Positions 1,247 through 32,462 are shown, counted from the stretch's first letter. The stretch: DNA of 64,000 bases from an uncultured Pseudobdellovibrionaceae bacterium (GCA_964396165.1 CAYNEF010000001.1:65990-129989); one strand, 5' to 3'. Numbers and translations: made by a program. The notes: generated by a model from the letters alone, not told the origin.

Positions 1247-1756
1247 TTAATCGCGATAAAGGCAATGTGCGTAGATTACATGGCTGTGGCGCGCTTCATG
1301 AAACCTAAGTTTACTTACTACTTCTTCTTGCAACTTTTCGATTTTCGTCTCATGAAACTCAAAGATCTCGTCGCAATCTATACAAACGATGTGATCATGA
1401 TGGCGGGTAGCGCTGATTTCAAACACTTTTTCTCCAGTGTCCTTAATAAGCGTTTCACTTACAATCCCTGCCTCGGCAAAGATTTGCATAGACCGATAGA
1501 CAGTAGCAGGACCGACATTGGGGAATAACTTCGCAACTCTTGCTATCAGTCCTATTACGGTAAAATGAGACTCGTGCTGCGCAACGATGCTTAGAATTTT
1601 AATCCTGGATTCGCTTTGATGAAGTTTTCTTTCAACGACAAAGAGATCTAGTTTGCTCTTAAGTAATTTAAACCTTTCTTCTTTAGTAGAATACTGTGAT
1701 TCTGCCCAAGAAGGAACTGGGCGACCACATGGAAGCTTGTAAGCTTTAGTTTTCAC
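1247..1756 (-). CDS. Fur-family metal-dependent transcriptional regulator (Fur/Zur-like)
   Basis: Winged-helix N-terminus and HHDHIVCIDCDEIFEF-type metal-site motifs plus a C-terminal HC..Y..D. Last gene of the minus-strand efflux operon. Confidence 0.8.
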   Translation of the reverse strand: MKTKAYKLPCGRPVPSWAESQYSTKEERFKLLKSKLDLFVVERKLHQSESRIKILSIVAQHESHFTVIGLIARVAKLFPNVGPATVYRSMQIFAEAGIVSETLIKDTGEKVFEISATRHHDHIVCIDCDEIFEFHETKIEKLQEEVVSKLRFHEARHSHVIYAHCLYRD

Positions 1757-1786
1757 GGTAAGGACGGCTTGAATGGCTCTAGCACT

Positions 1787-3085
1787 TCAAGACTCCTCTT
1801 CATGGATCTTTTCGGTCTCCACAGAGGCGCCAAGAGATTTTTCAAGCTCGATTCTATCGCTCAAAAATTCATATTTGTAGTTTTCGCGTCTTAACTTTGT
1901 TTCGTAAAGCACTTCGGCCGCTTGCTTTAAGTCGATTGAGTTCTTAATCCCGCGCTTGTACTCGCTCATAACCGCGCGGTAATATTTTTCCGCACGATCC
2001 AAGTTTTTTTCCTCAAGATCCACTCGTTCCTGCACTACTTTTAATTTCCTATAAGCAATATCCATTTGTGTAACAGAGGTAAGAATTGCGTTTTTTAACT
2101 CGGCTTCAGTCTTTAGCCGCTTTGCCTCTCCCTCACGCTTTTCCCAGACAGCATCAAAGCCTGAAAACAGCTCCAATTTAATAATGCCCATCAAACTGAG
2201 ACTTGCCCCCCCTTGTTGCGGTCTTTCGATTAAAGGCAAATAACCAGCTTTTGCCTCGATATCAAATTTTGGGAGCCACTTACTTGTCCAAGTTTTAGAC
2301 TGCACCGACGCTATACTGGCATTCCGTCCCGCTATTAGAACCTGCTCGCTTCTTTCATTCATTTTCTTTATATAATCCATAAGCGAACCTTTAATATGCT
2401 GGTGCTGCAGTTTTCCAATCGGCTCTATTTTCGCGCCTATTTCTTCCCCAAGCAACCTTCTTAAATTAGCCCGGGCAGATTCTAACTCTTGTTGGACTAG
2501 CACAATGTCTGATCTTAGGATGGCATCGCGCAAGTCAAAATCCATGACATCAGACTCACCTGTCATCCCGGCTCCGCGCTTTTGTTTCGCGAGTTTTCTT
2601 AATTCATTGTTAAGTGTGAGCGCCTCGTTTTTGAGGTCTAATTTTCCCTTCGTGAAAATATAAAGGTGGAAAATATTTTCCACATCAAGTCCCACGCGAA
2701 ACTCAGTACGGTTGAGTCTAACTTCCGCCTTTTCAGCTTCTAAACTAGCTATTTGCGACCGGTAGCTATCGGAAAATCCGTTAAATACATTTATATTGCC
2801 ATAAGCATATCCAATCACTGCAGACTCGCTATTATGACTGTCAATTTGATTATCGGCACCACCAGCCACTCCCAATTTCGGGTAGTACGAGCTTCTCACA
2901 CGTCCAACAACGGCCTTTGCCTCTTCCAATGTTTTTCTTAATGCCGTCACCTCATAGTTATGCTCTACAGCGAATTTCTTTGCATCCTCTAGGCCCACCG
3001 TCCCAGTTTGGGAAGAATGACTTGGACTAGAATGGAGAACTTGCGAAAGTCCTAAAAATAACATTAAAACACTTCTCATCTTCAT
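1787..3085 (-). CDS. Outer membrane efflux protein (TolC/CzcC family OMF)
   Basis: Length, coiled-coil-rich repeats typical of OMF. Real start is likely MKMRSVLMLFLGLSQVLHS (signal peptide) at 3085; the track ORF runs further to 3193. Immediately downstream of the His-rich gene. Confidence 0.8.
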   Translation of the reverse strand: MKMRSVLMLFLGLSQVLHSSPSHSSQTGTVGLEDAKKFAVEHNYEVTALRKTLEEAKAVVGRVRSSYYPKLGVAGGADNQIDSHNSESAVIGYAYGNINVFNGFSDSYRSQIASLEAEKAEVRLNRTEFRVGLDVENIFHLYIFTKGKLDLKNEALTLNNELRKLAKQKRGAGMTGESDVMDFDLRDAILRSDIVLVQQELESARANLRRLLGEEIGAKIEPIGKLQHQHIKGSLMDYIKKMNERSEQVLIAGRNASIASVQSKTWTSKWLPKFDIEAKAGYLPLIERPQQGGASLSLMGIIKLELFSGFDAVWEKREGEAKRLKTEAELKNAILTSVTQMDIAYRKLKVVQERVDLEEKNLDRAEKYYRAVMSEYKRGIKNSIDLKQAAEVLYETKLRRENYKYEFLSDRIELEKSLGASVETEKIHEEES

Positions 3086-3086
3086 C

Positions 3087-3641
3087 TCAATCGAGCTCCA
3101 CTTGGATTTTTGCCTTTTTTTCTTCGCCTTCGTATTTTGCCGAAATATTCGCAAAGAAACGAAACGCCTTTTGGGGATCAAAAGCGGCTTCAAAATTCGA
3201 TTCTGTAACTGTTACCTTAACCACTTCCGTTTTCTTTTGACGCGGCAACTCAATGCTTAGGATCACGTCCTTAAAAGCACTGGTAGGAAGACTTGAAAAA
3301 ACTTTTGGGTTTTTGGGGTTTAGAGTAAGGGGGTAAATCTTAACCACCTTTTTTGTGTATACCACTTCAAAGAAAATTTCCGCCTCTTCCTTTTCTTCGT
3401 GGTGCTCATGCCCTTTTTCGGCGTGGTTTTCTTTCGACTCCTCTTTTTTGTCATGGTCATGTTCTTTTTCTGCGTGCCCTCCTCCACCATGTTCGTGTTC
3501 TTCTGCTTCATCATGTTCGGAGGCTTTTACTTCACCACCATGAGGAGCGGCGGGCATAGCACCCGGCATATCGTGGCCCTCGTGAGAAAATACATAAGCT
3601 CCCAGGGTCATCATCAGTAGAATTGACAATTTAAATTTCAT
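3087..3641 (-). CDS. His/Glu-rich periplasmic protein, putative metal-binding, in place of the expected RND adaptor
   Basis: Signal peptide MKFKLSILLMMTLGAYVFS. About 70-aa low-complexity HE/HD/HG-rich segment, then a ~100-aa beta-rich C-terminal domain. Overlaps the RND stop by 4 bp (translational coupling). The antisense ORFs at 3320..3620 are artefacts of its repetitive codons. Confidence 0.6.
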   Translation of the reverse strand: MKFKLSILLMMTLGAYVFSHEGHDMPGAMPAAPHGGEVKASEHDEAEEHEHGGGGHAEKEHDHDKKEESKENHAEKGHEHHEEKEEAEIFFEVVYTKKVVKIYPLTLNPKNPKVFSSLPTSAFKDVILSIELPRQKKTEVVKVTVTESNFEAAFDPQKAFRFFANISAKYEGEEKKAKIQVELD

Positions 3642-6600
3642 GCGTGTTTTTCTCCCTGCTCACGGTGCAATAGCAGTTGCTTTTCAGCGGACTTCTGTCC
3701 GAACTTATAAAACACAGTGGGGGTTACCCACATATCTAACAGAGTCGAGCTAAAAAGGCCGCCAAAGATAACAACGGCTACCGGGTGAAGGATTTCCTTT
3801 CCAGGCTCTCCTTTAGCGAGAATCAACGGGACAAGCGCCAGCATCGCCGTCAAAGCCGTCATTAACACCGGCACTAGTCTCTCAAGAGATCCCCTAATGA
3901 CCATCTCATCGGAAAACTTTTCCTTTTCATGTTCCATAAGATGGAGATAGTGGGAAATCATCATGATGCCGTTTCTAGAGGCAATCCCGCAAAGAGTCAC
4001 AAAAGCCACCATGGAAGCCACGGAAAGAATTCTATCAGATAGGAAAACCGCGACTACGCTTCCAATGAGTGCCATTGGAATATTGAGCATAATCTGAATC
4101 GAGATGAAGGCTGACTTAAAATGCATATAAAGGACGAGGAAGATTCCAACAATAGACAAGCTCCCTAGGATAAGCATCATACGACTTGCTTTTTGCTGAC
4201 TTTCAAATTGACCACCATAGCTAATGAAATAGCCCTCAGGCATTGTGACTTTTGATTTGACGCGTGCTTGGATCTCTTCAATCACGCTATTCAAATCCCT
4301 TCCCGACGTATTGGCTTGTACCACAATACGCCTTTGCATGTTTTCTCGGTTAATCATGTTGGGACCTGTCGTTTCGTAAACATCCGCCACTTCATCCAAA
4401 GTGACTCTTCTCCCATCGGGCATCGTCTTAATAATTAAACTTTGAATGTTCTTTACACTGGATCTTGATTCGTCATCCAAACGCATAAAAACTTCGTATA
4501 TCCTTTGTCCCTCTAACACCTGGGCAGTGACTTCCCCTGCCAATGCCATTTCAAGTTGCGTGGCAAGCTCTCCCACTACCATGTTATATTTGATCACTTC
4601 GTCTCTCATAAATCGAATTTTTATCTTTGGGATCTGCACTTGTTGTTCAATTTGAAGGTCGACTAAACCTTTTACATCTTGAATCTCGCTAAAAACTTGT
4701 GCCGCTAAAGATCGTAATTCACTTTGGTTCGTACCAAAAACCTTAATTGCGATTTGTGCTCTCACGCCAGATAAAAGGTGATCTAACTGGTGAGAAATGG
4801 GTTGCCCAACATTGATAGAGGCTCCTGGCAAATTTTTTACCAACCTCTCACGGATTTCTTCGAGAACAGTATCTCGTTTTCTTCCCTTTAAGTTAAAATC
4901 CACATCGATTTCACTGTTATGAACACCTTCGGCATGCTCATCTAGTTCTGCTCTACCTGTCCGCCTACTGACTGATTTTACTTCTGGGCTTTCAAGGATC
5001 AACTTTTCCGCCTTTGTCCCAATTTCATTCGAATAGTCTAAGCTCACCCCGGGGGTCAGGATTACAGCTATCATGGCGGTACCTTCATTAAACTTAGGCA
5101 GAAATTCTTTTCCCATAAAAGGGATCAGACAAATACTCGCGATAAAAAGACCGCTCACAGTACCTAAAACAAGCTTGGGTTTCTTCAATGCTTTTCTTAA
5201 AATCTTTTCGTCCCATTTTTTTAAGAAGCGTACCAAGAAACCATCGGCTCCGTGCTCCATTTGCTTCATATTAGGCAAAAGGTACGAACAAAGCGCAGGC
5301 GTTACTGTAAGCGAAATCAATAAAGAAGCGACGAGAGAAACCACATAGGCAACCCCCAAAGGGGCAAAAAACCTTCCTTCAAGGCCGCCTAATGAAAAAA
5401 GCGGGATAAAAACTAAAACTACGATAATAGTCGCAAAAACAATCGAATTTCTTACTTCGGATGAGGCTTCGTAAATAATTTGGGTTGCAGGTTTTGGATT
5501 CTCGGCATGTTTATTTTCTTTTAGTCTTCTAAAAACATTCTCTACGTCAACGATAGCGTCATCGACAAGTTCACCAATCGCAACTGCGAGCCCCCCTAGC
5601 GTCATCGTGTTGATATTGAGATCAAAAAACTTAAACACAATGGCAGTAAGTACGAAGGACAATGGGATCGCAGTAAGAGTGATTGCAGTGGTCCTGAAAT
5701 TAAGGAGAAAGAGGAATAAAATGATGGTGACAAGAATTGCGCCGTCTCTTAGCGCCTCTTGAACGTTGTGAACGGCATGCTCAATGAAATCCGCTTGCTT
5801 AAAAAGATCTTTATTAATTTTAACTCCTTTTGGGAGAGTCTTTTGGATGTCTTCAAGGGTCTTCGCAATTTGTTCCGACAGCTCGATCGTCGAAGCCCCA
5901 GGTTGCTTTTGGATACTCATGATGACAGCGGGGGAACCATTGATACTTGCATCGCCGCGCTTAATTCTTGGGCCAAACTGGACTTTTGCGACTTCTTTTA
6001 CCTGGACCGGTCTTCCCAAAGAACTCCCCACTGAAGAGCTCTCCACTTCCTCAAGAGATTTGACCCTGCCAAAATTTTGGATGAGATATTCTTTATTGTT
6101 CAGATTTACGAATCCGCCCGTGGTATTTTGGCTTAAGTGGGTGAGATTATGCTGGACGTCTTCAAGGCCAATGTTTCTTTTTCTCAGCTCTTCGGAAGAT
6201 AATTTGATTTGATATTGTTTTACCATTCCCCCGATCGGAATGACTTGGGCAATTCCCGGCGTTGAAAGCAGCCGAGGCCGAATAACCCAGTCGGCTATTG
6301 TCCTAAGATCCATGGGTGTAATAGCCGGATCTTCCGAAGAAAGCCCGACTAACTGAATTTGGCCCATAATGGAAGAAATCGGACCCATGACAGGACTAAT
6401 CCCTTTTGGAAGAGTCTCTTTTACAAGAGCTAACTTTTCGGCGACAAGTTGGCGGTTTCGAAAGATGTCCGTTCCCCAGCCAAACTCCATGTAAATTGCA
6501 GACAGGCCCACTCCTGAAGTGGAACGGACGCGCTCTAGCCCAGGAGTTCCATTTATGGCCACTTCAACCGGAAGAGTGACAAGGACTTCGACTTCCTCAG

Positions 6601-6772
6601 GGGCAAGTCCCCCGGCTTCTGTCATGATTGTAACGGTAGGACGATTAAGATCAGGAAAAACATCGACCGGCAAGTGAACTATAACCCATCCCCCGTAAGC
6701 AAGAAGCATCGCTGCGCTTGCTAGGACGAAAAGGCGGTTTTTAAGAGAAAACTGGATGATCCGATCAAACAC
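3638..6772 (-). CDS. Heavy-metal efflux RND transporter (CzcA/CusA family)
   Basis: 1044 aa, 12-TM RND architecture. N-terminus MFDRIIQFSLKNRLFVL...VDVFPDL typical of the HME subfamily. Confidence 0.9.
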   Translation of the reverse strand: MFDRIIQFSLKNRLFVLASAAMLLAYGGWVIVHLPVDVFPDLNRPTVTIMTEAGGLAPEEVEVLVTLPVEVAINGTPGLERVRSTSGVGLSAIYMEFGWGTDIFRNRQLVAEKLALVKETLPKGISPVMGPISSIMGQIQLVGLSSEDPAITPMDLRTIADWVIRPRLLSTPGIAQVIPIGGMVKQYQIKLSSEELRKRNIGLEDVQHNLTHLSQNTTGGFVNLNNKEYLIQNFGRVKSLEEVESSSVGSSLGRPVQVKEVAKVQFGPRIKRGDASINGSPAVIMSIQKQPGASTIELSEQIAKTLEDIQKTLPKGVKINKDLFKQADFIEHAVHNVQEALRDGAILVTIILFLFLLNFRTTAITLTAIPLSFVLTAIVFKFFDLNINTMTLGGLAVAIGELVDDAIVDVENVFRRLKENKHAENPKPATQIIYEASSEVRNSIVFATIIVVLVFIPLFSLGGLEGRFFAPLGVAYVVSLVASLLISLTVTPALCSYLLPNMKQMEHGADGFLVRFLKKWDEKILRKALKKPKLVLGTVSGLFIASICLIPFMGKEFLPKFNEGTAMIAVILTPGVSLDYSNEIGTKAEKLILESPEVKSVSRRTGRAELDEHAEGVHNSEIDVDFNLKGRKRDTVLEEIRERLVKNLPGASINVGQPISHQLDHLLSGVRAQIAIKVFGTNQSELRSLAAQVFSEIQDVKGLVDLQIEQQVQIPKIKIRFMRDEVIKYNMVVGELATQLEMALAGEVTAQVLEGQRIYEVFMRLDDESRSSVKNIQSLIIKTMPDGRRVTLDEVADVYETTGPNMINRENMQRRIVVQANTSGRDLNSVIEEIQARVKSKVTMPEGYFISYGGQFESQQKASRMMLILGSLSIVGIFLVLYMHFKSAFISIQIMLNIPMALIGSVVAVFLSDRILSVASMVAFVTLCGIASRNGIMMISHYLHLMEHEKEKFSDEMVIRGSLERLVPVLMTALTAMLALVPLILAKGEPGKEILHPVAVVIFGGLFSSTLLDMWVTPTVFYKFGQKSAEKQLLLHREQGEKHA

Positions 6773-6783
6773 CTAAACTCCGC

Positions 6784-7503
6784 TTAGAGAACGAACCCAA
6801 CACCGAGATCGAAAGACCATCCTTCAAATACTTGTGCCGAGGCAAAGCTACGGTACAGGGTCGAGCCAAGTTGAACACCTTTAAACCATTTGGAAGCTTC
6901 GCTCGTCCCTTCAAAGAGATTTAAATGAGCTGATAACTGATAGGAAGGCACCCAAAACCCTTGTTCAATCCCGTCAAGTTTCCCACTTTGATAAAACCAA
7001 AGAAAGCCGACTGAAGAAGCAATGCCCGGCTTTAAAAAAGAAGCGCCCGGAATACGGTAGTCAATTTGAGCCCCTAGATTTAAAGGAAGGGTATGGACTT
7101 TTAAAACGTCGCTAAATTTCTTTCCCGATTTATTTGTCACTGAAATCAAGCTTTCACGGTAGGAATACCCAGCCGAAGCTAACCCTGAAACCTCAACGCC
7201 ATAAAAAGCCGCTAAGACAGTTCCCACCTCCACCCGTAAAGTGGGAAGGCTTGAACCCGTACTTGCATAAGGCACGGTGTAGTAATCGTTTGATAGTTCA
7301 AATTTCTCAGGGGTAATGTAAGAAAACACGGGCCTTAATATAATCCCGTTTGAAGCATAATTTTCAACTTTAGCTTCCGTGACACTTTCACGGTAAAGCG
7401 TATTGACTAAATCCTTATCCATTTCAAAATCGGATTTAGATTCTGGTTCTGAGCCAAAGGTAGACAAACAAAAAATAGCTAAGACAAACAAAAACCGACT
7501 CAT
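6784..7503 (-). CDS. Secreted protein, possible small outer-membrane beta-barrel
   Basis: Signal peptide. Alternating hydrophobic pattern, aromatic-rich, C-terminal ...GVGFVL. 11 bp upstream of the RND start, so in the same operon. Confidence 0.45.
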   Translation of the reverse strand: MSRFLFVLAIFCLSTFGSEPESKSDFEMDKDLVNTLYRESVTEAKVENYASNGIILRPVFSYITPEKFELSNDYYTVPYASTGSSLPTLRVEVGTVLAAFYGVEVSGLASAGYSYRESLISVTNKSGKKFSDVLKVHTLPLNLGAQIDYRIPGASFLKPGIASSVGFLWFYQSGKLDGIEQGFWVPSYQLSAHLNLFEGTSEASKWFKGVQLGSTLYRSFASAQVFEGWSFDLGVGFVL

Positions 7504-8735
7504 TTATTCACCTCTAAGTTACCCACTTCCCCGAGCGCATCCGCTGCTACTGTCCCTCGGATTACTTTCCGATCTACGTCCGCTTTCACCGTTAAATTGT
7601 AACTTCCCGTTGTTTTTGCAACAAGCTTTCTTGTGTAGTAGTTATATTGAACTTCGCTGAAAGGGAGCTCGAAATACTCAGTAGAACCGAAGGGTCCAAG
7701 ATAAAACCTAACATTACCAGTCACTTTAAGACCGTTGGGGCTTGTCAGATCTTGGGAAGTGACAAAAGCGATCTGCACTCTTTCCGGTAGGTTAGAGTTT
7801 GGATTTGTGTTAACGAACTTACCTTGATAGGTCCCTTTTAAAGCCTCAAAAACATCCCCTGCTCCTGCTGTATCGGGAGGACCAGTTTTTCTAAAAGAAA
7901 TTTTTCCGAGCGTTCCCGTATATTGGCTGGACCATTCGCCAGTGACCTCCCCTTCAGCCCAACTTCCGGAGAGAACGATATCAGTGCCTTCTTGCCTGAA
8001 AATAATTTGCCCCGTAACGGCGTTAAACTGTACTTTATCGAACTTATAGGTCAGATATTCCGATGAGTTCCAGTCGCCGCAGATTAACTTTAAGGTAGCT
8101 GCCGCCTTCAACCCCTCAGGAGGCTGAAAACTCGTCTGAAGGTTAAGCTGGCCTAAATGGTAGAGCTTGCCCTCACGCAAAAGAATACCTTGGTATTCCC
8201 CCTTTAATTGTTCTGCTAACCCATTTGTCGATTGCGTTGCATTGCGATCTAATGAAACTGTCCCGGAACTCACAGAGGTGGGCATCGTCCAAGTTCCCTG
8301 AAGTTTTGACTCTGTTTGAGTGAGCGAAAAAATTATATTTTCCCCAGAGCTCGCGACTACAATATCAAGAGCACTTCGTTTTGGATCAAAATCAGCCTTT
8401 TGTACGGCAAATCCAGGAGAGGTATTCGGATCACATCCTTGACCAAATGTAAAACATAGGTATCCCGTAAGAATTGGGGTCATCACAGGATCGACTTGTC
8501 CTTCAATCGTTGTAGGGATGTCCTTGATTTCAAGACGCAAGGAAACGTTTTGTGTTTTACCGCTGGTCTGCACGAGTTTGCCAGCATACTCCCCTTCGAC
8601 CTGTTTTAACTCAGAACGTTTATTTTCCGACGATGCTCGAAGCTGTTCTCTTTTCAGATCTCTATCGCTAACAGAATTTTTCGAGCAGGAAATAGCAATA
8701 AGACCAAAGAATGCAAGTGCAAGTTTTTTATACAT
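7500..8735 (-). CDS. Lipoprotein built from ~110-aa tandem repeat domains (uncharacterised family)
   Basis: Lipobox LIAISCS. Three to four internal repeats with the L(K/T)G.Y.G...(F/Y)LGPFGS.EY...F..VQ(F/Y)N.Y.R.L motif. Paralogous to 8753..9580. Confidence 0.6.
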   Translation of the reverse strand: MYKKLALAFFGLIAISCSKNSVSDRDLKREQLRASSENKRSELKQVEGEYAGKLVQTSGKTQNVSLRLEIKDIPTTIEGQVDPVMTPILTGYLCFTFGQGCDPNTSPGFAVQKADFDPKRSALDIVVASSGENIIFSLTQTESKLQGTWTMPTSVSSGTVSLDRNATQSTNGLAEQLKGEYQGILLREGKLYHLGQLNLQTSFQPPEGLKAAATLKLICGDWNSSEYLTYKFDKVQFNAVTGQIIFRQEGTDIVLSGSWAEGEVTGEWSSQYTGTLGKISFRKTGPPDTAGAGDVFEALKGTYQGKFVNTNPNSNLPERVQIAFVTSQDLTSPNGLKVTGNVRFYLGPFGSTEYFELPFSEVQYNYYTRKLVAKTTGSYNLTVKADVDRKVIRGTVAADALGEVGNLEVNK

Positions 8736-8752
8736 TAGTACCCTTCCTAACT

Positions 8753-9580
8753 TTATGGATAGTGCGTAAGGGTGGCGTCAGCGACTTGCCCCATCCCATC
8801 GGCAAAAACAGTGCCTGTAAAAATCCCATCGTGACTCATTTTGCCTTTGAAGGTTAAGCCATATTCCATAGTACGCGCCGTCAAATAACGATTGTAAAAA
8901 TTAAACTGCACATCGGTGAGTTTTGTTTCCACATATTCCAAAGAGCCAAAGGGTCCAAGGTAAAGACGCACATTTCCGGAAATGACAATTTTAGGTTCTG
9001 TCCCTGAATTTTCTTGCGTACTCACTAAAGACATTGAAGCACGCTCTGGCAGATTAGACTCGGAGTTGGTGTTTTTTAACTCTCCCCGATAATGTCCGGT
9101 AAGCGTTTTAACTAAAATGCCTTGAGAAGGAGGCGTAGGTTCTACATCTTTAGCAGCGCTGAACTTGCCGACCTTTCCAAGCAACGTCGAATGCCAGTCT
9201 CCCTGAATCGTTCCGGTCTTAAGAAAACCAATCATACTTACGTTATTTTTTTCGCTTCGAAGAGTAATTTGCCGTGTAAGTAAGTTCATTGGCACATCGT
9301 CAAATTCGTAAGTTAAAAATTCATTTGAGTTTTGTTCCCCGAAAAAAATTCTCAAATTTGCTGATATTTTAAGCTGGCCACCACCGACGTTTACGGTGCG
9401 TAGCGTTATGTGCGCATATTGGTAAAATTGGCTGCCGTCATGAAGTAAAACCGCCTTATACAACCCCTGCACCGACTCATCATCCAAAGAATTAGCTTCA
9501 GAACCAAAACTTGCGAATGGCGTCATAAAAGAGAGTACTAAAATACCTAAAAAAAACTTTTTGATGTTTGACTGGAACAC
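8753..9580 (-). CDS. Secreted paralog of the 7500..8735 repeat-domain protein (two repeats)
   Basis: Signal peptide. NLPERASMSLVSTQ...VRLYLGPFGSLEYVE...VQFNFYNRYLTA aligns with NLPERVQIAFVTSQ...VRFYLGPFGSTEYFE...VQYNYYTRKLVA in the neighbouring gene. First gene of the operon. Confidence 0.6.
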   Translation of the reverse strand: MFQSNIKKFFLGILVLSFMTPFASFGSEANSLDDESVQGLYKAVLLHDGSQFYQYAHITLRTVNVGGGQLKISANLRIFFGEQNSNEFLTYEFDDVPMNLLTRQITLRSEKNNVSMIGFLKTGTIQGDWHSTLLGKVGKFSAAKDVEPTPPSQGILVKTLTGHYRGELKNTNSESNLPERASMSLVSTQENSGTEPKIVISGNVRLYLGPFGSLEYVETKLTDVQFNFYNRYLTARTMEYGLTFKGKMSHDGIFTGTVFADGMGQVADATLTHYP

Positions 9581-9653
9581 GAATGCCTCCTATTGGCTTA
9601 AAAAAGGTGCAAATTTGCGCCTACAAATACTTTAGTGGCGGATAACTTATCTT

Positions 9654-9674
9654 TCACTTTAAATTTACTTTAAG
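9654..9674. promoter_or_regulatory. Direct repeat tcACTTTAAa / ttACTTTAAg spaced 11 bp, candidate OmpR-family response-regulator binding site in a divergent promoter region
   Basis: Seen directly in the 9581..9733 intergenic region between the efflux operon and the two-component system. An imperfect palindrome GGTGCAAATTTGCGCC lies at 9607..9622. Confidence 0.3.
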
Positions 9675-9679
9675 ATGCT

Positions 9680-10429
9680 ATGCGCAATAACTTTCCCATG
9701 CTAATTCCCTTATCAAAAGAGAGGGAGCCGAATTTGAAAGGGGAAAAACGTCGTATTTTATTGGTGGAAGACCATATAGACATGGCAGAACCTTTAATAA
9801 AGGGGCTGGAAGAAGAGGGGTTCTACGTAAAACACGTAACTCTTGGGAAAGAAGCCATTCGTGTTTTTAACGAGGTTTGGCAACTAATCATTTTAGATCT
9901 CACGCTTCCCGATGTGCCCGGCGAATCTATTTTAAGCCACTTAAAACAAAAACCCGACTATCCTCCCGTTCTTATCCTCACTGCCCGAAGCAAAGTAGAA
10001 GATAAAGTAGAACTCTTTCGTCAAGGCTGTGACGACTACATGACTAAACCTTTCGCATTTGAAGAGCTTTTAGGACGAGTTCAGGCGCTCCTTCGACGTT
10101 CGCACCGGGTTCTGCCTAATAAAACCACCCTTTTAGATCTGGAATTAGATCCCAGCACTCATGTGCTCTCTAAGAAAAACCTCTCTACGCAACTCACTCC
10201 GAAAGAATCTGCCTTAGTGCAATTTCTTATGGGAGCCGAAGGAAGAGTAGTCTCTAGGAAAGAGTTGTTCTTATATGGTTGGGGACTTGATAAGGAACCT
10301 GACACTAATTTCATCGGGGTTTACCTCTTTAACCTAAGAAAAAAACTTTCTGAAGTAAATTGTGCAGACTGGTTGATGACGCTTCGAGGAACTGGATACC
10401 GCTTTTACGATCCGAAAGAAAAACAATGA
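9680..10429 (+). CDS. OmpR-family response regulator (CzcR/CusR-like)
   Basis: Receiver domain (RILLVEDH...D) plus winged-helix trans_reg_C (LTPKE..LL). Likely true start is TTG at 9734, preceded by gagggag 6 nt upstream, giving M-KGEKRRILLVEDH. Confidence 0.85.
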   Translation: MRNNFPMLIPLSKEREPNLKGEKRRILLVEDHIDMAEPLIKGLEEEGFYVKHVTLGKEAIRVFNEVWQLIILDLTLPDVPGESILSHLKQKPDYPPVLILTARSKVEDKVELFRQGCDDYMTKPFAFEELLGRVQALLRRSHRVLPNKTTLLDLELDPSTHVLSKKNLSTQLTPKESALVQFLMGAEGRVVSRKELFLYGWGLDKEPDTNFIGVYLFNLRKKLSEVNCADWLMTLRGTGYRFYDPKEKQ

Positions 10430-11691
10430 CGACGAAAGTTAGATTCACTCTCACCATTTCGATGGTAGTGGCCCTTTTGGTGGGAGCACTCAGTTCGTTC
10501 GTGTATGTGAGAGTCCGCGCCAAGATGCTTACCCAGGCTTCCCAATCCCTTGCGGACTTCCTTAAGCATGAAGCCGATCATATCGTTCATCCTATGGAAC
10601 AAAATGGGTTAGTGATCGACAAAAATCACTTTGGGGATTTTCTTTTGAAAATAGAATCTGAAAACGAAATCCTTTTTGACGGATTCCCCCAAAAAACCGC
10701 CGAAATTAATTCTCCCAATTACATTGTAAAAAAAGTAGTCCAAGATATTAACGGAAAGCCTTTGACCTTGACGGGGGCTTATAATTTGGCCCCTCTTTAT
10801 CATTACCTCGACTCGCTTCTTCAAACTTTGATGTTAGGGTGGGTGCTTACTGTTGCACTCATCATTCCTATTAGTTATTCCCTTGCACTGGCTTTGCTTA
10901 AACCGTTTAGAAACCTTGCTGCAGTGACGTACGAATTGCGCGCCGAAAGTTTGGAGTTTCGGTTCCCAGTACCCCAATATAAAGACGAAGAAGGTCTATT
11001 AGTAGTTTCTTTCAATGCTCTATTGGAACGTCTTCAGAGGTCCTTCGAAAGCATGAGAAATTTCTCACGTAATGTCTCCCATGAGATTCGAACGCCTGTT
11101 TCCGTCATTATGAGCCAATCCGAGATGGCTTTGCGAAAAAACAGGACTTCCGACGAATACCGTAATGCTTTGGAAAAGTCCTTTGATGAATCAAAAAGGT
11201 TAAAAAGCATTATTGACAACCTTCTCTCGCTTGCTGAAGTTGATAGGATTTATGATGAAAACAGAAAGACCACTTTCCCTGTTTTGCTAAGAATTAAAGA
11301 AATTGTGGCAACTCTTACTCAGCAGAGGAATGAATTGAAAGAAATTGCAATTGACTGCGACGAAAATCTTTTGTTTATCGGAAATGAAGTGGCTTTCACC
11401 TCTATCGTCTCAAATCTGATTGAGAACGCCCTTAAATACGGCGGAAAAAAAGTACGTGTATCCTGCATGGAGCAAGGAGAGCGAGTAGTTTTTCTCATCG
11501 AGGACGATGGCCCTGGGATGGTTAGCGCCACTGCCTTACCAAGCAAAACAAAAATGCCTAAGGGAGAAACAAGTCATGGACTTGGGCTTTCAATTGTAAG
11601 AGCTTTTTCTGAAGCTTATGGAGGAGAACTTATCCTTAAGCAATCTTCCCTAGGTGGGCTTTGCGCGACCACCTCTTTACCCTTGAAATAA
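10426..11691 (+). CDS. Sensor histidine kinase (two TM segments, HAMP, HisKA, HATPase)
   Basis: H-box SHEIRTP, N-box NLIENALKYG, G-boxes DDGPGM and GLGLS. ATG overlaps the response-regulator TGA (ATGA); the track ORF starts earlier, at 10360, in the same frame. Confidence 0.85.
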   Translation: MTTKVRFTLTISMVVALLVGALSSFVYVRVRAKMLTQASQSLADFLKHEADHIVHPMEQNGLVIDKNHFGDFLLKIESENEILFDGFPQKTAEINSPNYIVKKVVQDINGKPLTLTGAYNLAPLYHYLDSLLQTLMLGWVLTVALIIPISYSLALALLKPFRNLAAVTYELRAESLEFRFPVPQYKDEEGLLVVSFNALLERLQRSFESMRNFSRNVSHEIRTPVSVIMSQSEMALRKNRTSDEYRNALEKSFDESKRLKSIIDNLLSLAEVDRIYDENRKTTFPVLLRIKEIVATLTQQRNELKEIAIDCDENLLFIGNEVAFTSIVSNLIENALKYGGKKVRVSCMEQGERVVFLIEDDGPGMVSATALPSKTKMPKGETSHGLGLSIVRAFSEAYGGELILKQSSLGGLCATTSLPLK

Positions 11692-15596: not shown

Positions 15597-17873
15597 ATGC
15601 AATCAGATGCTCAACCTTTGTCTCAAAAATGGGTAAATTCAATAAAGAAGTCCCCAAACCAGTCTAAAAATAAGACACCCAACCGAAACTTATGGGACTT
15701 GGGATTATTTTCCCTCCTCTCGGATTGGAAACGCCTTTTCTCTTCAGACTGCTTTCGGCAAGATTTTATTTCAGGTCTAGTAGTAGCCTGTGCTGCTGTG
15801 CCTCTCTCTTTAGCTATTGCCCTAGCTTCGGGAGTTACGCCAGCTACGGGGCTCACTACAGCAATCGTAGCTGGGATAGTGTGCGCGTTATTTGGTGGCA
15901 GCCCTCTTTCAGTAAGTGGTCCAGCGGCTGCAATGTCAATTCTCGTAAATACCGCAGTCATTAAATACGGCTTGTCGGGCCTTTTTTTACTCACCTTAGT
16001 ATGCGGCGCCTTGCAGATTTTTAGTGGCGTATTTCGTCTTGGGAAAATTATCCGCTTTGTTCCTGCTCCAGTTATAATGGGTTTCACCGCAGGAATCGGA
16101 GCAATTATTTTTACGGGGCAACTACCTAAAGCTTTAGGACTTCCAGCCGCTGATCCATCCCATGTTTGTGATGTAATCACACATTCTATGGAGATCTTCC
16201 GACAAACAAATCCTATGGAACTATTTCTGTCTTTGCTTACTATTGGCCTTATGTTTACATTCCCTAAGTTTTCTTCCAAAGTTCCAGCCGCCTTAGTGGC
16301 TGTTGTGGTACCTTCAACTCTAGCAATCTTTCTAAAAATACAAGTAGAAGTCATTGGAACAATTCCCACAAGCTTATTACTCCCTACTGTCCCTACCTTG
16401 CCTAAACATGTAGATGAGGGTTTCTTTTTAATGGCGATAACTATTTACGCTCTTGCCTCGCTGGAAACTCTGCTTTCTTCAAGTGCTGTAGATAAAATGA
16501 GTAGAGGAAAAGCACATAACCCTGACCAGGAACTAATAGGCCAGGGCCTCGGTAATATAGCCTCAGCCATGTTAGGCGGAATCCCCATAACCGCGGTAAT
16601 CGCCAGATCTGCACTAAATGTTCAAGCAGGAGCAAAAACTCGAAGATCGTCAATTATTCATTCGTTATTTATAGTGGCCGCTATTTTGTTATTATCTCCC
16701 GTTGTCAGTCGGATCCCAATATCGGTATTAGCCGGGATTCTTCTTTCTACCGCTTTAAGAATGTTAAATCCTAAGGAATTAGTAGAGCTTTGGAAAACCT
16801 CTAAAACCGATGCCGTCGTTTATGCAGTAACTTTTGTCGTAATAGTTCTCGTGGGCTTGCTTGCAGGTGTCCAGGCCGGTATTGCAGCGGCATTGATTAT
16901 CGCAGCTATACGACTTTCGCAGGTACGAATCAACGTGGACGTTCACGAAGGAATGTCGCCTACACGTCTATCATTATCAGGCCCCTTAACTTTTCTTTCG
17001 TCGGGCCAAATGTCCGACTTGCAAAAACGTCTCGAGAATGAACCTATTGACGGCGTACTGCTCGACTTGTCAGCCGTAAGTTATTTTGACCATTCAGGGA
17101 GTGAGCAATTAACAAATTTTATCAATTATTTATTTAGACGAACCTCTAGGTTAGCCGTCTTACACGCTTCCCATGAGCTAAAAAGGAAAATAGAGTTCCA
17201 ACTAGAAGAAGCTACAAAAGAGATTTTTGTTGATACCGAAACTGAGGCACAAATAAAACTCAACGACAAGTTACCGATTCGTCGCCTCTTACAAGGAATA
17301 ACTAGTTATTCGCGCAAGAAACAAAAATATGAATTGCTCTTCGAAAAACTCGCGGAACGGCAAAGCCCTCACACTCTTTTAATCACATGTTGCGACAGCC
17401 GAATCGATCCCACTCTAATTACTTCGACTCATCCAGGTGAACTTTTTGTTTTAAGAAACATAGGGAATCTTGTACCGAAATATGGTTCCACTAGCCATGT
17501 TGGCGAACAGGCTGCCATTGAGTACTCTCTTTCCGTACTAAACGTAAAAGAGGTTGTAGTGTGCGGACACTCGGGATGTGGAGCAGTTCATGCGAAGCTC
17601 AAGGGCGTGCCTAAGACTTTACCCGGAGTGGATAAATGGTTAACCCAAATAAACGATAACGCTTTCTTGGCCACGGACAATGTGGATACAGCATCAAAAA
17701 CAAATGTAGTGCAACAAATGGAAAACCTGATGAGTTATAACATCGTCAAAGAAAAAGTCGAATCAGGTGTCCTACGCCTACATGGGTGGTTTTACGAAAT
17801 TAAAACTGGTGATGTCTCTACTTGGGATAAGTCTTCTGGTTCTTTTGGAAAGCTTTTTCTAAATCGAAATTAG
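15597..17873 (+). CDS. SulP-family anion (bicarbonate/sulfate) permease fused to STAS and C-terminal beta-carbonic anhydrase domains
   Basis: SulP TM core, STAS region, then beta-CA motifs CCDSRIDP and HSGCGAV. Such SulP-CA fusions are known in established knowledge (e.g. mycobacterial Rv3273). Confidence 0.85.
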   Translation: MQSDAQPLSQKWVNSIKKSPNQSKNKTPNRNLWDLGLFSLLSDWKRLFSSDCFRQDFISGLVVACAAVPLSLAIALASGVTPATGLTTAIVAGIVCALFGGSPLSVSGPAAAMSILVNTAVIKYGLSGLFLLTLVCGALQIFSGVFRLGKIIRFVPAPVIMGFTAGIGAIIFTGQLPKALGLPAADPSHVCDVITHSMEIFRQTNPMELFLSLLTIGLMFTFPKFSSKVPAALVAVVVPSTLAIFLKIQVEVIGTIPTSLLLPTVPTLPKHVDEGFFLMAITIYALASLETLLSSSAVDKMSRGKAHNPDQELIGQGLGNIASAMLGGIPITAVIARSALNVQAGAKTRRSSIIHSLFIVAAILLLSPVVSRIPISVLAGILLSTALRMLNPKELVELWKTSKTDAVVYAVTFVVIVLVGLLAGVQAGIAAALIIAAIRLSQVRINVDVHEGMSPTRLSLSGPLTFLSSGQMSDLQKRLENEPIDGVLLDLSAVSYFDHSGSEQLTNFINYLFRRTSRLAVLHASHELKRKIEFQLEEATKEIFVDTETEAQIKLNDKLPIRRLLQGITSYSRKKQKYELLFEKLAERQSPHTLLITCCDSRIDPTLITSTHPGELFVLRNIGNLVPKYGSTSHVGEQAAIEYSLSVLNVKEVVVCGHSGCGAVHAKLKGVPKTLPGVDKWLTQINDNAFLATDNVDTASKTNVVQQMENLMSYNIVKEKVESGVLRLHGWFYEIKTGDVSTWDKSSGSFGKLFLNRN

Positions 17874-19393: not shown

Positions 19394-21622
19394 ATGACGC
19401 AAAAAAACTACGATAAGGCCGGTACTACCTCTCACTTGGAATTAAAGGTTCACGGAATGGATTGCGCTGAAGAAATCTCGGCCCTTAAACGAGAGATACT
19501 GCCTACTCTTGGGGAAAACGGGAATCTTTCCTTTGATCTACTGAACGGGAAAGTGTCCATTACCTCAGAAAAATTTATCCCATTGGAATCCATATTAGCT
19601 GCAATAAAAAAAACCGGGATGAAAGCCGAAATGTGGGACAAGGGACAAAAGCATCCACAAAAAGAATCTTGGTGGCAAAGCCATAGCCGCACAGCATCGA
19701 CATTGGCTAGCGCAACTTCCCTTTTAATTGGCTTTTTGCTCCATGCGCTCACTTCGAAAAATTTCCGGATCGCTTTTGGCGCTGAAGAAACTGGACAAAT
19801 ACATGATGTTCCTTACGCCGTACGCGGCTTTTATCTCTTTGCAATCGTCTCGGGAGGTTGGTTTATCCTTCCCAAGGCTTTTTATTCCTTAAAAAAATTT
19901 CGTCCCGATATGAATCTGCTCATGACCATCGCCGTGTGCGGCGCCATCCTGATTGGTGAATGGTTTGAGGCGGCGACAGTCGCATTTCTCTTCTCGCTTT
20001 CGTTATTGCTGGAATCCTGGAGTGTCGGCAAGGCAAGAAAAGCGATTCAATCTCTTATGGCTCTTACACCCTCTCGAGTGCATCTAAAGGATGTCTCCGG
20101 TGCACTTAAAGAAGTTGAGCCATCTGAAGTCCCTGTTGGATCTATTATTCTCGTTCGCCCCGGGGAAAAATTCGCTCTCGACGGCAAGATCATCTCAGGT
20201 TCTAGTTATGTCAATCAAGCTGCCATCACTGGGGAAAGCATTCCGGTTTTTAAAGATTCAAGCGCTGAAGTATTTGCGGGTACCGTGAATGGCGACGGAG
20301 CGCTTGAAGTAGAAACGACAAAGTTGGTTTCAGACACTATGCTTTCGCGTATTATTGGAATGGTTTCTGAAGCGCAATCGAAAAAGGGCCCTTCGGAGCA
20401 ATGGGTTGATAAATTTGCGGTAATATACACGCCGATAGTCTTAATGTTAGCGTGCGCTGTTTTATTTATCCCGCCACTCTTTCTAGAAGGCAACTGGACA
20501 GATTGGATTTATCGGTCTTTAGTCCTTTTAGTTATCGCTTGCCCATGTGCTTTGGTCATATCGACTCCCGTTAGTATCGTATCTGCATTAGCGGCGGCGG
20601 CTAAAAACGGGATTCTAATAAAAGGTGGAACTTATATAGAGGCCCCAGCTCATTTAAAAGCCATTGCTTTTGATAAGACCGGTACCTTAACCCAAGGCAA
20701 ACCAAGAGTGAGCGAAGTTATTCCCTTGGGAAACCATACTGAGGCTGAACTGCTAGCCCTTGCAGCCGGAATGGAAACGCATAGCGATCATCCCCTTGCG
20801 AAAGCAATAAGGGAACATGCGGAGCAAAGGGGAATTAAGCCTAGTGTCGCAACTGATTTTCAAACCATACAAGGGAAAGGAGCCACAGCTTTAATTAAGG
20901 GTCGAACTTATTGGCTTGGCTCCCACCGTTTTTTGGAAGAAAAGGGGCAGGAAACCCCAGAAGTGCATAAAGCCATAGAGGAGAAATCTTTCTCCGGAAA
21001 AAGTGTAGTAGTACTCGGCAATGAAACGCATGTGTGTGGTTTTATCGCTCTTAACGATTCTTTAAGATCGGGTGCGAGGAAAGCTATTGAAGATCTCAGG
21101 CAAAAAGGCGTTGAACGGCTGGTCATGCTGACTGGAGATAATAGGACAACCGCGAAAAATATTGGTGGGGAAGTCGGCGTTGATGAGGTCTTGTCCGAGT
21201 TACTGCCCTTGGACAAAGTAAAAAGTCTTGAAGCGCTTAATAATAGATACGGAACAACCGCTATGGTCGGGGACGGGATTAACGATGCTCCTGCATTGGC
21301 CGCTGCTACATTAGGTATCGCAATGGGGGTCACAGGAAGTGACGTCGCTCTTGAAACGGCTGATATCGCTCTCATGTCGGATGATCTTTCGAAGCTGCCT
21401 TGGCTTATCGACCACTCCAGAAAAACACTACGGATCATTCGGCAAAACATAACCGCTTCAATTTTTGTCAAAGCTGTCTTTGTGCTCCTTACCTTCCTTG
21501 GATATTCTTCTCTTTGGAGTGCAATCGCAGCAGATATGGGCGTCTCGCTTGCGGTTGTATTTAATGGGTTGCGGCTACTTAGCAATAATGTCGAAAATCA
21601 ATCCCCGATAACACTACGATAG
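19394..21622 (+). CDS. P1B-type heavy-metal ATPase (Zn/Cd/Pb, ZntA/CadA-like)
   Basis: N-terminal HMA-like domain, TM CPCALVISTP, DKTGTLT, SDHPLAKAI, GDGINDAP. The HMA motif is GMDCAEE, with only one Cys. Confidence 0.9.
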   Translation: MTQKNYDKAGTTSHLELKVHGMDCAEEISALKREILPTLGENGNLSFDLLNGKVSITSEKFIPLESILAAIKKTGMKAEMWDKGQKHPQKESWWQSHSRTASTLASATSLLIGFLLHALTSKNFRIAFGAEETGQIHDVPYAVRGFYLFAIVSGGWFILPKAFYSLKKFRPDMNLLMTIAVCGAILIGEWFEAATVAFLFSLSLLLESWSVGKARKAIQSLMALTPSRVHLKDVSGALKEVEPSEVPVGSIILVRPGEKFALDGKIISGSSYVNQAAITGESIPVFKDSSAEVFAGTVNGDGALEVETTKLVSDTMLSRIIGMVSEAQSKKGPSEQWVDKFAVIYTPIVLMLACAVLFIPPLFLEGNWTDWIYRSLVLLVIACPCALVISTPVSIVSALAAAAKNGILIKGGTYIEAPAHLKAIAFDKTGTLTQGKPRVSEVIPLGNHTEAELLALAAGMETHSDHPLAKAIREHAEQRGIKPSVATDFQTIQGKGATALIKGRTYWLGSHRFLEEKGQETPEVHKAIEEKSFSGKSVVVLGNETHVCGFIALNDSLRSGARKAIEDLRQKGVERLVMLTGDNRTTAKNIGGEVGVDEVLSELLPLDKVKSLEALNNRYGTTAMVGDGINDAPALAAATLGIAMGVTGSDVALETADIALMSDDLSKLPWLIDHSRKTLRIIRQNITASIFVKAVFVLLTFLGYSSLWSAIAADMGVSLAVVFNGLRLLSNNVENQSPITLR

Positions 21623-22174
21623 CAAATAATTTTTTACATGGCCCCTAAGCAGCCAGCCCAAGCGAAAGGAAAAGAAGCCTCCTAATAAAGCTCCTAAGGA
21701 CCAAGCTGCAATGAGGCTAGCAGGGATCGTATGTTCCACTTCCCCAACGGATAGAAAAAAACCCAATGACAAAAAAACCAAAAGAGCCCATTGAAGCAGC
21801 GGTGTTTTTCTAATTGCTCGAACTTCGTGCGTTCTCAAAAGAAAAGCTGCGACCAAACCCGTCCCTCCCAAAAAGACAGCTCCACAAGCGAGCATGCACC
21901 CATAAGATCCAAAGCTTGAAAAAAAGCTTAAAAGAAAATCATTTTCTTTGTGGATTGTGACTCCCAATTGTGGGCAGAAGAAAAGCGTGATCACGCCCGC
22001 TATAAAATGAATCGCGAATAACTTGCAGAAAACCTTCCAGATGGGTGGGTTGAGCTCGTCATGCAGTGTCCGTTTAATAAAAGCTGTAACGTCGGAGGGT
22101 GGTGTACTCCGGTCGGATTCCAAAAAGTACTGGTACTCTTTGTTCCAGTCGTCTTTTGAAAAATCTTTTTTCAT
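21614..22174 (-). CDS. Membrane anti-sigma factor (NrsF/DUF1109-like, multi-TM)
   Basis: Overlaps the ECF sigma stop by 4 bp. Cytoplasmic N-terminus followed by ~5 TM helices. Confidence 0.5.
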   Translation of the reverse strand: MKKDFSKDDWNKEYQYFLESDRSTPPSDVTAFIKRTLHDELNPPIWKVFCKLFAIHFIAGVITLFFCPQLGVTIHKENDFLLSFFSSFGSYGCMLACGAVFLGGTGLVAAFLLRTHEVRAIRKTPLLQWALLVFLSLGFFLSVGEVEHTIPASLIAAWSLGALLGGFFSFRLGWLLRGHVKNYLLS

Positions 22175-22794
22175 TTTTTTGCCCTCAATTTCTGTCCGTG
22201 CATTTTCACCTTCTTCAGAGCACGGCTAACCATTTGGCGCGCGTTTACAGGAGTCGTTTCAAGCCGTAACGCAATTTCCTCAAAAGAAAAATCGTTCCCG
22301 TACCTAAGCAGAAGCGCTTGTTTCTGTTCCTCGGAGAGTATTTTTAACCTTGCGGTATCTTCCAATAATACTGGCTCTAAATTGTGTTGTTCAGCCTGCA
22401 CGCTGGTGACAGTAGTTTTAGAAATCTCGATAGTTTTTTTACTTTCCCTCCCTTTGGATCGCAGTGCATCTATCATCACACTTCGACAGATCGTAAAAAG
22501 CCAAGGGAGCAACGGTAGCGGAGTACGATATTGCATGCGGGTCAGGTGAAACTTAAAAAAAGTGCCCTGAAAAATATCGTCCGCGAGCGCACTATCTGAA
22601 ATGCGCTTTCTCAAATAGCCTCGAACTAAATCCGCATTTCGATCGTAAAGCAGGTTGAATGCCATGGAATCCCCTTCCTGGTAGGCAATCATCAACTCCT
22701 CATCGGTTTTGGAACTGTAATCAATTTCACTCATACTTATTACGATCTGAGTCCACTTTTTTGTGACAAACCATTTAGCTACCACGGGAAGCAC
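22171..22794 (-). CDS. ECF-type RNA polymerase sigma-70 factor
   Basis: Region 2 (LLYDRNADLVRGYL...) and region 4 HTH (LLLRYGNDFSFEEIALRLETTPVNARQMVSRALKKV). Start may be the internal MSEIDYS. Confidence 0.8.
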   Translation of the reverse strand: MLPVVAKWFVTKKWTQIVISMSEIDYSSKTDEELMIAYQEGDSMAFNLLYDRNADLVRGYLRKRISDSALADDIFQGTFFKFHLTRMQYRTPLPLLPWLFTICRSVMIDALRSKGRESKKTIEISKTTVTSVQAEQHNLEPVLLEDTARLKILSEEQKQALLLRYGNDFSFEEIALRLETTPVNARQMVSRALKKVKMHGQKLRAKK

Positions 22795-22931: not shown

Positions 22932-23294
22932 ATGCATAAAGGTCTGTTAAAATTTGTGGGAATTCTAGTAGGAAGTTCTCTTTTATTTGCTTATTTGTTT
23001 AGCTTTAAACAGTCTAAAACCGTAAGCAGTGAAAACCTTAAGTCTTCAAATGCTCAAACTTGTCAAATCTCGGAAATGACACCTACGTCTTGCTCAGGGG
23101 ATAAGGACGACCACGCTGGTTCTGCTGAAGATACTTCACACTGTCAAAAGCACTGCGGCCATGTTCATGCCGGACTTCTCTCAGATGCAAATCTGAATCT
23201 CACTTCACCAGACTCTAAAAAATCCATCGATTCCCCCGAAAAAACACCCGAAAACGTAATTCTCGATCCTGGCTCTCGTCCTCCCAATCTTTAA
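22932..23294 (+). CDS. Small membrane-anchored Cys/His-rich protein, possible metal binding
   Basis: N-terminal TM, then TCQISEMTPTSCSGDKDDHAGSAEDTSHCQKHCGHVHAG. Confidence 0.35.
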   Translation: MHKGLLKFVGILVGSSLLFAYLFSFKQSKTVSSENLKSSNAQTCQISEMTPTSCSGDKDDHAGSAEDTSHCQKHCGHVHAGLLSDANLNLTSPDSKKSIDSPEKTPENVILDPGSRPPNL

Positions 23295-25235: not shown

Positions 25236-25236
25236 A

Positions 25237-31000: not shown

Positions 31001-31010
31001 TCGGTCTCCT

Positions 31011-32460: not shown

Positions 32461-32462
32461 TA

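Follow-up and report, generated by a model that had tools for sequence, protein, structure and literature searches.

An RND heavy-metal efflux operon from an uncultured Pseudobdellovibrionaceae bacterium that encodes a small His-rich periplasmic protein and no adaptor

Introduction

The heavy-metal efflux (HME) systems CzcCBA and CusCFBA of C. metallidurans and E. coli combine a CusA/CzcA-family permease of the resistance-nodulation-cell division (RND) type with a TolC-family outer-membrane factor (OMF) and a periplasmic adaptor or membrane-fusion protein (MFP), CzcB or CusB, their genes being arranged in the order C-(F)-B-A next to those of an OmpR-type two-component system. The adaptor is regarded as indispensable in RND pumps that span both membranes, where it bridges the gap and opens the outer channel. 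Here we describe an operon on the minus strand of a 64-kb stretch of DNA from an uncultured Pseudobdellovibrionaceae bacterium (GCA_964396165.1, CAYNEF010000001.1:65990-129989), which we refer to as the window and whose positions are counted from its first letter. Like CzcCBA and CusCFBA, this operon features a CusA/CzcA-family RND, a TolC-family OMF and an adjacent OmpR-type two-component system; unlike them, it has no CzcB/CusB gene and displays the order RND-HisR-OMF, where HisR is a His-rich periplasmic protein. We found no literature on adaptor-less HME pumps in Bdellovibrionota describing such an architecture.

In the usual pattern the adaptor gene adjoins that of the pump, and the OMF is often encoded elsewhere. 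An RND without an adaptor gene of its own is nevertheless known in AcrD of E. coli, which borrows AcrA and thereby provides a precedent for an adaptor acting in trans. AcrD resembles RND1, the permease of the present operon, in having no adjacent adaptor gene; however, it is a solitary multidrug RND with neither an OMF nor a chaperone encoded next to it, and it shares its adaptor with a close paralogue, whereas the window operon contains its OMF gene and the window holds two pumps, only 29% identical to each other, that both lack adaptors. Companion proteins that handle metal are likewise known: CusF, a small periplasmic protein encoded in CusCFBA, parallels HisR, although the two are unrelated; CusF and the N-terminal region of CusB play the same role in metal delivery and activation within the Cus system, as does CrdA elsewhere. 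In the crdA-crdB-czcB-czcA operon of H. pylori, CrdA is a small periplasmic metal protein associated with an HME-RND pump and an OMF, and this operon retains its CzcB adaptor.

Results

HisR and adaptor genes are mutually exclusive among related pumps

The center of the operon is formed by three genes:

3638..6772, minus strand: HME-type RND permease (RND1), 1044 aa
3087..3641, minus strand: HisR, the His-rich periplasmic protein, 184 aa; its start overlaps the RND1 stop by 4 nt
1787..3085, minus strand: TolC-type OMF, about 432 aa from the ATG at 3085; not a lipoprotein

The adaptor searches covered the window and 39 of its proteins. None of the operon proteins, including the three encoded upstream of RND1, matched the HlyD, CusB or Biotin_lipoyl models of Pfam at E <= 0.1, and the 30 other window proteins scanned gave no match to an MFP domain at reporting thresholds of E <= 0.01 or 0.001. 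A custom MFP hidden Markov model (HMM), constructed from the CzcB-type adaptors of related loci together with E. coli CusB, returned zero six-frame matches at E <= 10 across all 64 kb; because the same model picked up 78 adaptors in the DNA of the related loci, the detection procedure evidently works. The adaptor encoded together with its pump, by which a tripartite system is recognized, is absent from this operon, as had been claimed in a preliminary description of this DNA.

This absence is part of a wider pattern, in which HisR is the constant correlate of a missing adaptor. An RND alignment was used to scan metagenomes, yielding 80 further loci with pumps 48-63% identical to that of the window, and the gene neighborhoods were tallied for the 98 RND genes of at least 900 aa. 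An adjacent adaptor without HisR is seen for 72 of them and an adjacent HisR without an adaptor for 19; not one of the 98 has both. Neither gene was found next to the remaining seven: five of these have less than 1 kb of upstream sequence and are therefore uninformative, the other two being the second pump of the window and its orthologue in the related locus L012 (related loci are designated by L numbers throughout). The 19 HisR-linked pumps, RND1 among them, constitute a single clade nested among adaptor-bearing sisters (neighbor-joining bootstrap 87/100). The RND-HisR architecture is stable across pumps that are 57-94% identical, and an OMF gene is adjacent in most of the HisR loci (L024, L046 and L102 are among those without one) as against about 6 of the 68 adaptor-bearing sisters. 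Five more RND-HisR contexts, all without an MFP and three of them with an adjacent OMF, were recovered in L095/L096, L097/L098, L099/L100, L102 and L103; L097/L098 falls inside the subclade that carries the B-A-OMP genes described below, and the other four outside it.

HisR defines a small family similar to the N-terminal domain of long adaptors

That a His-rich periplasmic protein is encoded between the RND and the OMF was borne out by our analysis. HisR comprises a signal peptide (residues 1-19), a mature N-terminus HEGHDMPGAMPAAPHGG (residues 20-36, nt 3584-3534), a disordered His/Glu-rich linker (37-87) and a confidently modelled immunoglobulin (Ig)-like beta-sandwich (88-184). The mature chain begins with His and reads H-E-G-H ... 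P-H-G-G. A profile search of 1.84 billion proteins recovered 155 cluster representatives at E <= 1e-3, with lengths of 127-244 aa except for a few fragments and one 568-aa protein; HisR is a stand-alone protein family. Of 164 members, 151 have H-x(1-3)-H at the beginning of the mature chain (HEGH in 91), and 96 have a GG 15 residues later. There is also a subfamily with Cys in place of the mature N-terminal His, in a lipobox-like context (...LAC-D/E...PGALPPAPNGG), represented by a protein of L006 (5043-5651) and by the family members P0104, P0105, P0139, P0141, P0143 and P0148; these variants are probably lipid-anchored and without the His tip.

Many adaptors of the sister pumps are long (520-630 aa) and display a signal peptide followed by HEGHDHG...APR...FELVAV...IYLDRF and then the adaptor core. 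An hhalign comparison of HisR with this N-terminal domain aligned the two end to end over 102 columns with a probability of 71% and an E-value of 3.6e-5, as against probabilities of 0.3-3% for controls, and the HisR family member P0181 has a weak precomputed match to Pfam CzcB_N (PF25971). There was no HMMER-level cross-match between the set of HisR proteins and that of the long-adaptor N-domains; the Pfam copy used seemingly lacks the CzcB_N model, as the CzcB-type models on record for the MFP of L003 were not reported by it. These comparisons lend moderate support to HisR being a free-standing CzcB_N-like domain. The CzcB_N domain of the long adaptors is similarly placed directly after the signal peptide, has a mature HEGHDH... 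start and a beta-domain of similar length, and the adaptors with such a domain adjoin RNDs of the superclade to which the HisR pumps belong. In contrast to these adaptors, HisR has no barrel-sandwich, beta-barrel or membrane-proximal domain, and its gene follows that of the RND, whereas the long-adaptor gene precedes it. Some of the long adaptors (L047, L060, L067, L072, L087, L094 and others) have an odd layout, in which a hydrophobic segment and, in many cases, another HEGH motif separate the signal peptide and CzcB_N-like domain from the adaptor core.

The C-terminal domain of HisR has a fold like that of CrdA and CopC; HisR has no match to the CopC model of Pfam and no sequence match in the PDB. 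In CopC the mature N-terminal His serves as a ligand. At the sequence level there is no similarity of HisR to H. pylori CrdA or CopC, and its N-terminal His motif is set off from the sandwich by the disordered linker, unlike in those proteins. Two other identities were considered and rejected. The possibility that HisR is a truncated adaptor or a fragment of one found no adaptor-sized relative among the 1.84 billion proteins searched, the only match longer than 244 aa being the 568-aa protein, a repeat protein unlike an adaptor, and comparison of HisR with an alignment of whole adaptors had an hhalign probability of 1%. Weak matches to ZrgA or ZIP-like proteins cover only the low-complexity His-rich linker.

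The pump and the channel look canonical

RND1 is an HME-RND permease by membership, scoring 826 bits against the curated cut-off of 701 for the CusA/CzcA model TIGR00914 (residues 1-1031) and 871 bits for ACR_tran. Its motif in transmembrane helix 4 (TM4), AIGELVDDAIVDVEN, departs from the CzcA-type DFG..DGA..VEN, and the HisR clade and its sisters share the TM4 motif AIGELVDDA(I/V)VDVEN. The CusA Met triad (M573/M623/M672) is absent, with A, N and H in its stead; the His at the M672 position is found in 18 of 19 clade members and 66 of 68 sisters. By its motifs RND1 fits neither the CusA nor the CzcA type: the missing Met triad indicates that it is not a CusA-type Cu(I)/Ag(I) pump and, in conjunction with the acidic TM4, makes divalent cations its most likely substrate.

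Comparison with the 68 adaptor-bearing sisters revealed no clade-specific indels in the RND, and hence no insertion that could replace an adaptor. Of 264 columns with a conservation of 90% or more among the sisters, the RNDs of the HisR clade retain 259. The OMF has the OEP domain (PF02321; 134 bits over two repeats), and its two tips, ..AGM..SDVMD and EYKRGIKNS.DL, align with the VGL and VGT motifs of TolC. The tip Gly motifs and the gating Tyr, Lys and Asp residues are conserved in the same style as in the orthologues that adjoin adaptors in L003 and L011; an altered tip that might take over from an adaptor was not found. Thus, judged by their sequences, the pump and the channel look canonical, with no sign of a re-engineered RND-OMF junction.

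Layout, regulators and conservation of the operon

The remaining genes of the operon and the divergent genes facing it are:

8753..9580, minus strand: protein B, 275 aa, a secreted paralogue of A with a signal peptide and no lipobox
7500..8735, minus strand: lipoprotein A, 411 aa, lipobox ...AIS-C17 (AISC)
6784..7503, minus strand: putative small outer-membrane beta-barrel protein (OMP-like), 239 aa; its start and the A stop share 4 nt (ATGA)
1247..1756, minus strand: Fur-family regulator, 169 aa, with a 40-residue N-terminal extension (PF01475)
9581..9679: divergent intergenic region between B and the response regulator, 99 bp, presumed promoter/operator
9680..10429, plus strand: OmpR/PhoB-type response regulator, 249 aa, Response_reg and Trans_reg_C domains
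10426..11691, plus strand: sensor histidine kinase, about 421 aa, HAMP, HisKA and HATPase_c domains; the mechanical open reading frame (ORF) starts at 10360

The gene content and minus-strand order given in the preliminary description, B-A-OMP-RND-HisR-OMF-Fur, were recovered in full. Its statement that every junction is of at most 18 bp holds for five of them, namely B-A (17 nt), A/OMP (4-nt overlap), OMP-RND (11 nt), RND/HisR (4-nt overlap) and HisR-OMF (1 nt), and fails for OMF-Fur (30 nt). The ATG of the kinase overlaps the stop of the response regulator by 4 nt, and a consensus scan of 9581..9679 found no sigma-70-like site.

The same gene order, with response regulator and kinase divergent from B-A-OMP-RND-HisR-OMF and B invariably the first gene of the operon, was recovered via A or its neighbors in about 10 further loci of Pseudobdellovibrionaceae, Bacteriovoracaceae and related metagenome-assembled genomes (MAGs), a recurrence that tells against a chance arrangement. 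The divergent synteny of the two-component pair is kept in L001, L004-L007, L009, L010, L013 and L097, making it the likely regulator of the operon, as previously suggested. The pair has generic OmpR/PhoB-type domains and does not reach the cut-offs of the heavy-metal CusRS/CzcRS subfamilies: the response regulator scores 156.5 bits against TIGR01387 (cut-off 279) and the kinase 164 bits against TIGR01386 (cut-off 292). The Fur-family protein has a clear FUR domain (98.7 bits, cut-off 23.1) and falls below every NCBIfam equivalog cut-off; it occupies the position after the OMF in no syntenic locus, this place being held by a 530-550-aa A-like gene where the loci extend. We read the Fur gene as a lineage-specific regulatory add-on.

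In L001/L002, L005, L006 and L008-L010 the operon continues past the OMF with an A-like protein of about 535-550 aa, which in L001/L002, L005 and L006 is succeeded by two or three paralogous proteins of 170-205 aa without a Pfam match that are missing from the window (L001 16873-19498; L005 and L006 16900-20340). The window encodes a 576-aa distant relative (E about 1e-14 to 1e-16) of the 520-550-aa post-OMF A-like proteins at 49056-50786 on the minus strand, 45 kb away from the operon, whose post-OMF place is taken by Fur. In L001, a ZnuABC-type zinc uptake system (1958-4415) lies a few kb past the two-component genes, separated from them by four unannotated ORFs, which hints that in this genome the locus has to do with zinc.

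B, A and the OMP-like protein constitute a separate envelope module

Searches of Pfam and NCBIfam gave no match for protein B, A or the OMP-like protein at E <= 0.1. B and A are paralogues (phmmer E about 1e-48). A is modelled as a helix (24-43) followed by three 8-stranded up-and-down beta-barrels (48-164, 179-282 and 301-410); a barrel-sandwich (lipoyl), a 6-stranded beta-barrel and membrane-proximal domains, which would mark it as an MFP, were looked for in A and not found. The earlier characterization of A as an all-beta repeat lipoprotein without a coiled-coil hairpin is thus upheld. Metal binding by A appears unlikely, since it contains a single His and no invariant His, Cys or Met besides the lipobox Cys. 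Avidin/calycin-like 8-stranded barrels, such as the Cap15 barrel, streptavidin and the TbpB/fHbp lipoprotein barrels, are the nearest known counterparts; they have no sequence relationship to A, which has no known ligand site, and, unlike them, A and B consist of 2-5 barrels in tandem. The A family is very small, with 55 members found in 5.8 billion clusters, and those with a named source come from Bdellovibrionota or Deltaproteobacteria MAGs. In the OMP-like protein, a signal peptide is followed by about 10-12 alternating amphipathic segments that are conserved, and the C-terminus (...GVGFVL) resembles a beta-signal, features of a putative small outer-membrane beta-barrel; its family has no Pfam match in 13 members and no sequence match in the PDB.

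In L003 and L011, B-A-OMP directly adjoins an OMF, an RND and one or two CzcB-type adaptors, and most of the relatives without an adaptor lack it (L015, L016, L018, L021, L024, L025, L046, L074, L095, L099, L102 and L103). By virtue of this distribution, the three genes are best seen as a separate accessory envelope module that accompanies pumps of this kind both with and without an adaptor. We infer it to be a module of beta-barrels that do not bind metal.

A second adaptor-less pump and the surrounding metal-resistance island

The window encodes another RND pump on the plus strand:

23976-28392, plus strand: second OMF-RND pair without an adaptor
23976-25235, plus strand: OMF of the second pair, 419 aa; the RND begins 1 nt later
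25237-28392, plus strand: RND of the second pair (RND2), CzcA-type, 1051 aa, TM4 DFGLLVDGSVVLIEN

RND2 is 29% identical to RND1, and there is no MFP gene between the OMF and RND2 or nearby. The pair recurs in L012 and probably in L024, and the relatives closest to it that do have an adaptor lie in L003, L011 and L064. Just upstream, two small secreted Cys/His-rich proteins of 120 and 154 aa (22932-23294 and 23373-23837, plus strand) are encoded, which have no Pfam match; L005 and L003 encode weak relatives, and small ORFs that are likewise Cys/His-rich stand ahead of pumps in L012 and L099. They were considered as HisR relatives and showed no similarity to it.

Together with the two pumps, several neighboring genes give the first 31 kb the appearance of a metal-resistance island. 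At 19394-22794 a heavy-metal P-type ATPase (742 aa, E1-E2_ATPase with a weak HMA domain) adjoins an extracytoplasmic function (ECF)-type sigma factor (22171-22794), and the position of an unannotated 186-aa ORF at 21614-22174 suggests an anti-sigma factor. An arsenic-resistance-like cluster on the minus strand (29080-31072) codes for an LMWPc-type ArsC, an ACR3/SBF-family permease and a glyoxalase-family protein. At the edge of the island (31666-32885, minus strand), a RES-domain protein of 264 aa lies beside an upstream ORF of 140 aa, which we take to resemble a RES-Xre-type toxin-antitoxin pair. A 758-aa fusion of a SulP-family transporter, a STAS domain and a beta-carbonic anhydrase is encoded at 15597-17873 on the plus strand.

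Discussion

How might the pump be connected across the envelope?

Our tentative proposal, which we hold at somewhat short of even chances, is that this is a metal-inducible heavy-metal RND efflux operon of a distinct monophyletic sub-branch of pumps, in which HisR is found in place of an operon-encoded adaptor and the bridge between pump and channel comes from elsewhere. The operon would be switched on by the divergent OmpR-type two-component system. HisR would then capture periplasmic metal at its mature N-terminus, with the His/Glu-rich linker adding capacity in this lineage, and would either pass it on to the RND trimer at the periplasmic entry or activate the pump, a job that in relatives may be done by the homologous N-terminal domain of the long CzcB-type adaptors. 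The proton-driven pump (TM4 motif ELVDDAIVDVEN) would expel the metal, likely divalent cations, via the TolC-like OMF, and on balance the bridge between them could be furnished by an adaptor encoded elsewhere in the genome, a source that we regard as plausible and slightly less than evenly probable.

What favors an adaptor in trans is that, as far as we know, every tripartite RND pump studied so far needs one, and the canonical pump and channel fit a system that still uses a classical adaptor. Several observations weigh against it. No adaptor gene for RND1 was seen anywhere, its action in trans being assumed, and about 465 kb of HisR-positive loci yielded one adaptor gene, beside a doubtful HisR-like protein. 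The operon tightly couples the OMF to the RND and HisR yet not to an adaptor, and is thus the reverse of the usual pattern; RND2 likewise has no adaptor in the window, so that either two widely divergent pumps would have to share one borrowed adaptor or there must be several orphan adaptors. To these may be added that metal binding by HisR is a prediction, that its homology to CzcB_N has moderate support, and that three positions of the RND docking domain, equivalent to 209, 737 and 797 of CusA, are relaxed in the HisR clade; these, being three of the five relaxed columns, could reflect a lost adaptor contact and are a weak hint. The perfect anticorrelation of HisR and MFP in what is one clade of pumps, the tight coupling of the three genes, the retention of the OMF without an adaptor and the presence of a second, unrelated adaptor-less pump in the same genome, as again in L012 and L024, speak instead for the pump being truly adaptor-free, with RND, HisR and OMF as the complete machine, and the relaxed positions and the stability of the architecture across the clade are in line with this. 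Two versions of such a machine can be envisaged, which even when taken together we consider rather unlikely: the RND docking domain might touch the OMF directly, with HisR, by its Ig-like domain of about 100 residues and its metal-binding N-terminus, serving as a minimal collar or activator, or HisR oligomers might stand in for the adaptor ring. HisR is, however, too small for the gap that is filled by an adaptor hexamer, the RND has no insertion or extension and keeps almost all of its conserved columns, and the OMF tip is the same as in orthologues adjoining adaptors. Moreover, the cryo-EM structures of AcrAB-TolC and MexAB-OprM show no contact between RND and OMF, and the fact that RND2 has no HisR means that HisR is not a general substitute for an adaptor.

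The preliminary description had raised another option, namely that lipoprotein A, B and the small OMP make up a novel set of periplasmic partners in place of the adaptor. A is of adaptor size, carries a lipid anchor and is elongated by its helix and three barrels, the module shares its operon and translational coupling with the pump genes, and the arrangement is kept in about 10 loci; however, the idea founders on the coexistence of the module with CzcB-type adaptors and on its absence from most adaptor-less HisR-type loci. Further, A ranges from 167 to 687 aa across loci with a varying number of barrels, unlike a bridge of fixed length, and the Ser at position +2 after its lipidated Cys suggests sorting to the outer membrane under E. 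coli rules that may not hold in this phylum. We deem this option very improbable. An only somewhat less remote scenario, which we consider improbable as well, is that the pump is not coupled across the envelope at all: the RND would operate by itself in the inner membrane, where it would shift metal into the periplasm or within it or handle another substrate, with HisR as an ordinary CusF/CrdA-like chaperone or buffer and the OMF acting independently; alternatively, the system as a whole would be a decaying remnant. The HisR loci without an adjacent OMF, the chaperone-like fold of HisR and the AcrB-like DD pair in the TM4 motif of the RND can be cited in its favor. Against it, the genes are all intact, tightly coupled and strongly conserved over many lineages (the RND has a mean column identity of 80%), the OMF is adjacent in most loci, and the conserved closed-state gating residues of the OMF imply that some partner must open the channel.

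Implications for RND pumps of the Bdellovibrionota

Irrespective of how the envelope is bridged, these genes delineate a coherent group of pumps in which no adaptor gene lies alongside in any locus examined and a small metal-type protein is always present, and they define three uncharacterized protein families: HisR, the A/B barrel repeats and the small OMP. If the adaptor is borrowed, this would be an unusual heavy-metal pump operon that retains its channel while its adaptor gene is located elsewhere. If, in what we see as the less probable case, a branch of RND pumps in the Bdellovibrionota and related uncultured bacteria spans both membranes without a classical adaptor, with a His-tipped CzcB_N-like protein of about 130-190 residues as its sole periplasmic partner, it would contradict the rule by which an MFP hexamer is required in tripartite RND pumps, and the model of their assembly would need an exception. 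RND-HisR-OMF constitutes a set of three genes that is directly testable in E. coli.

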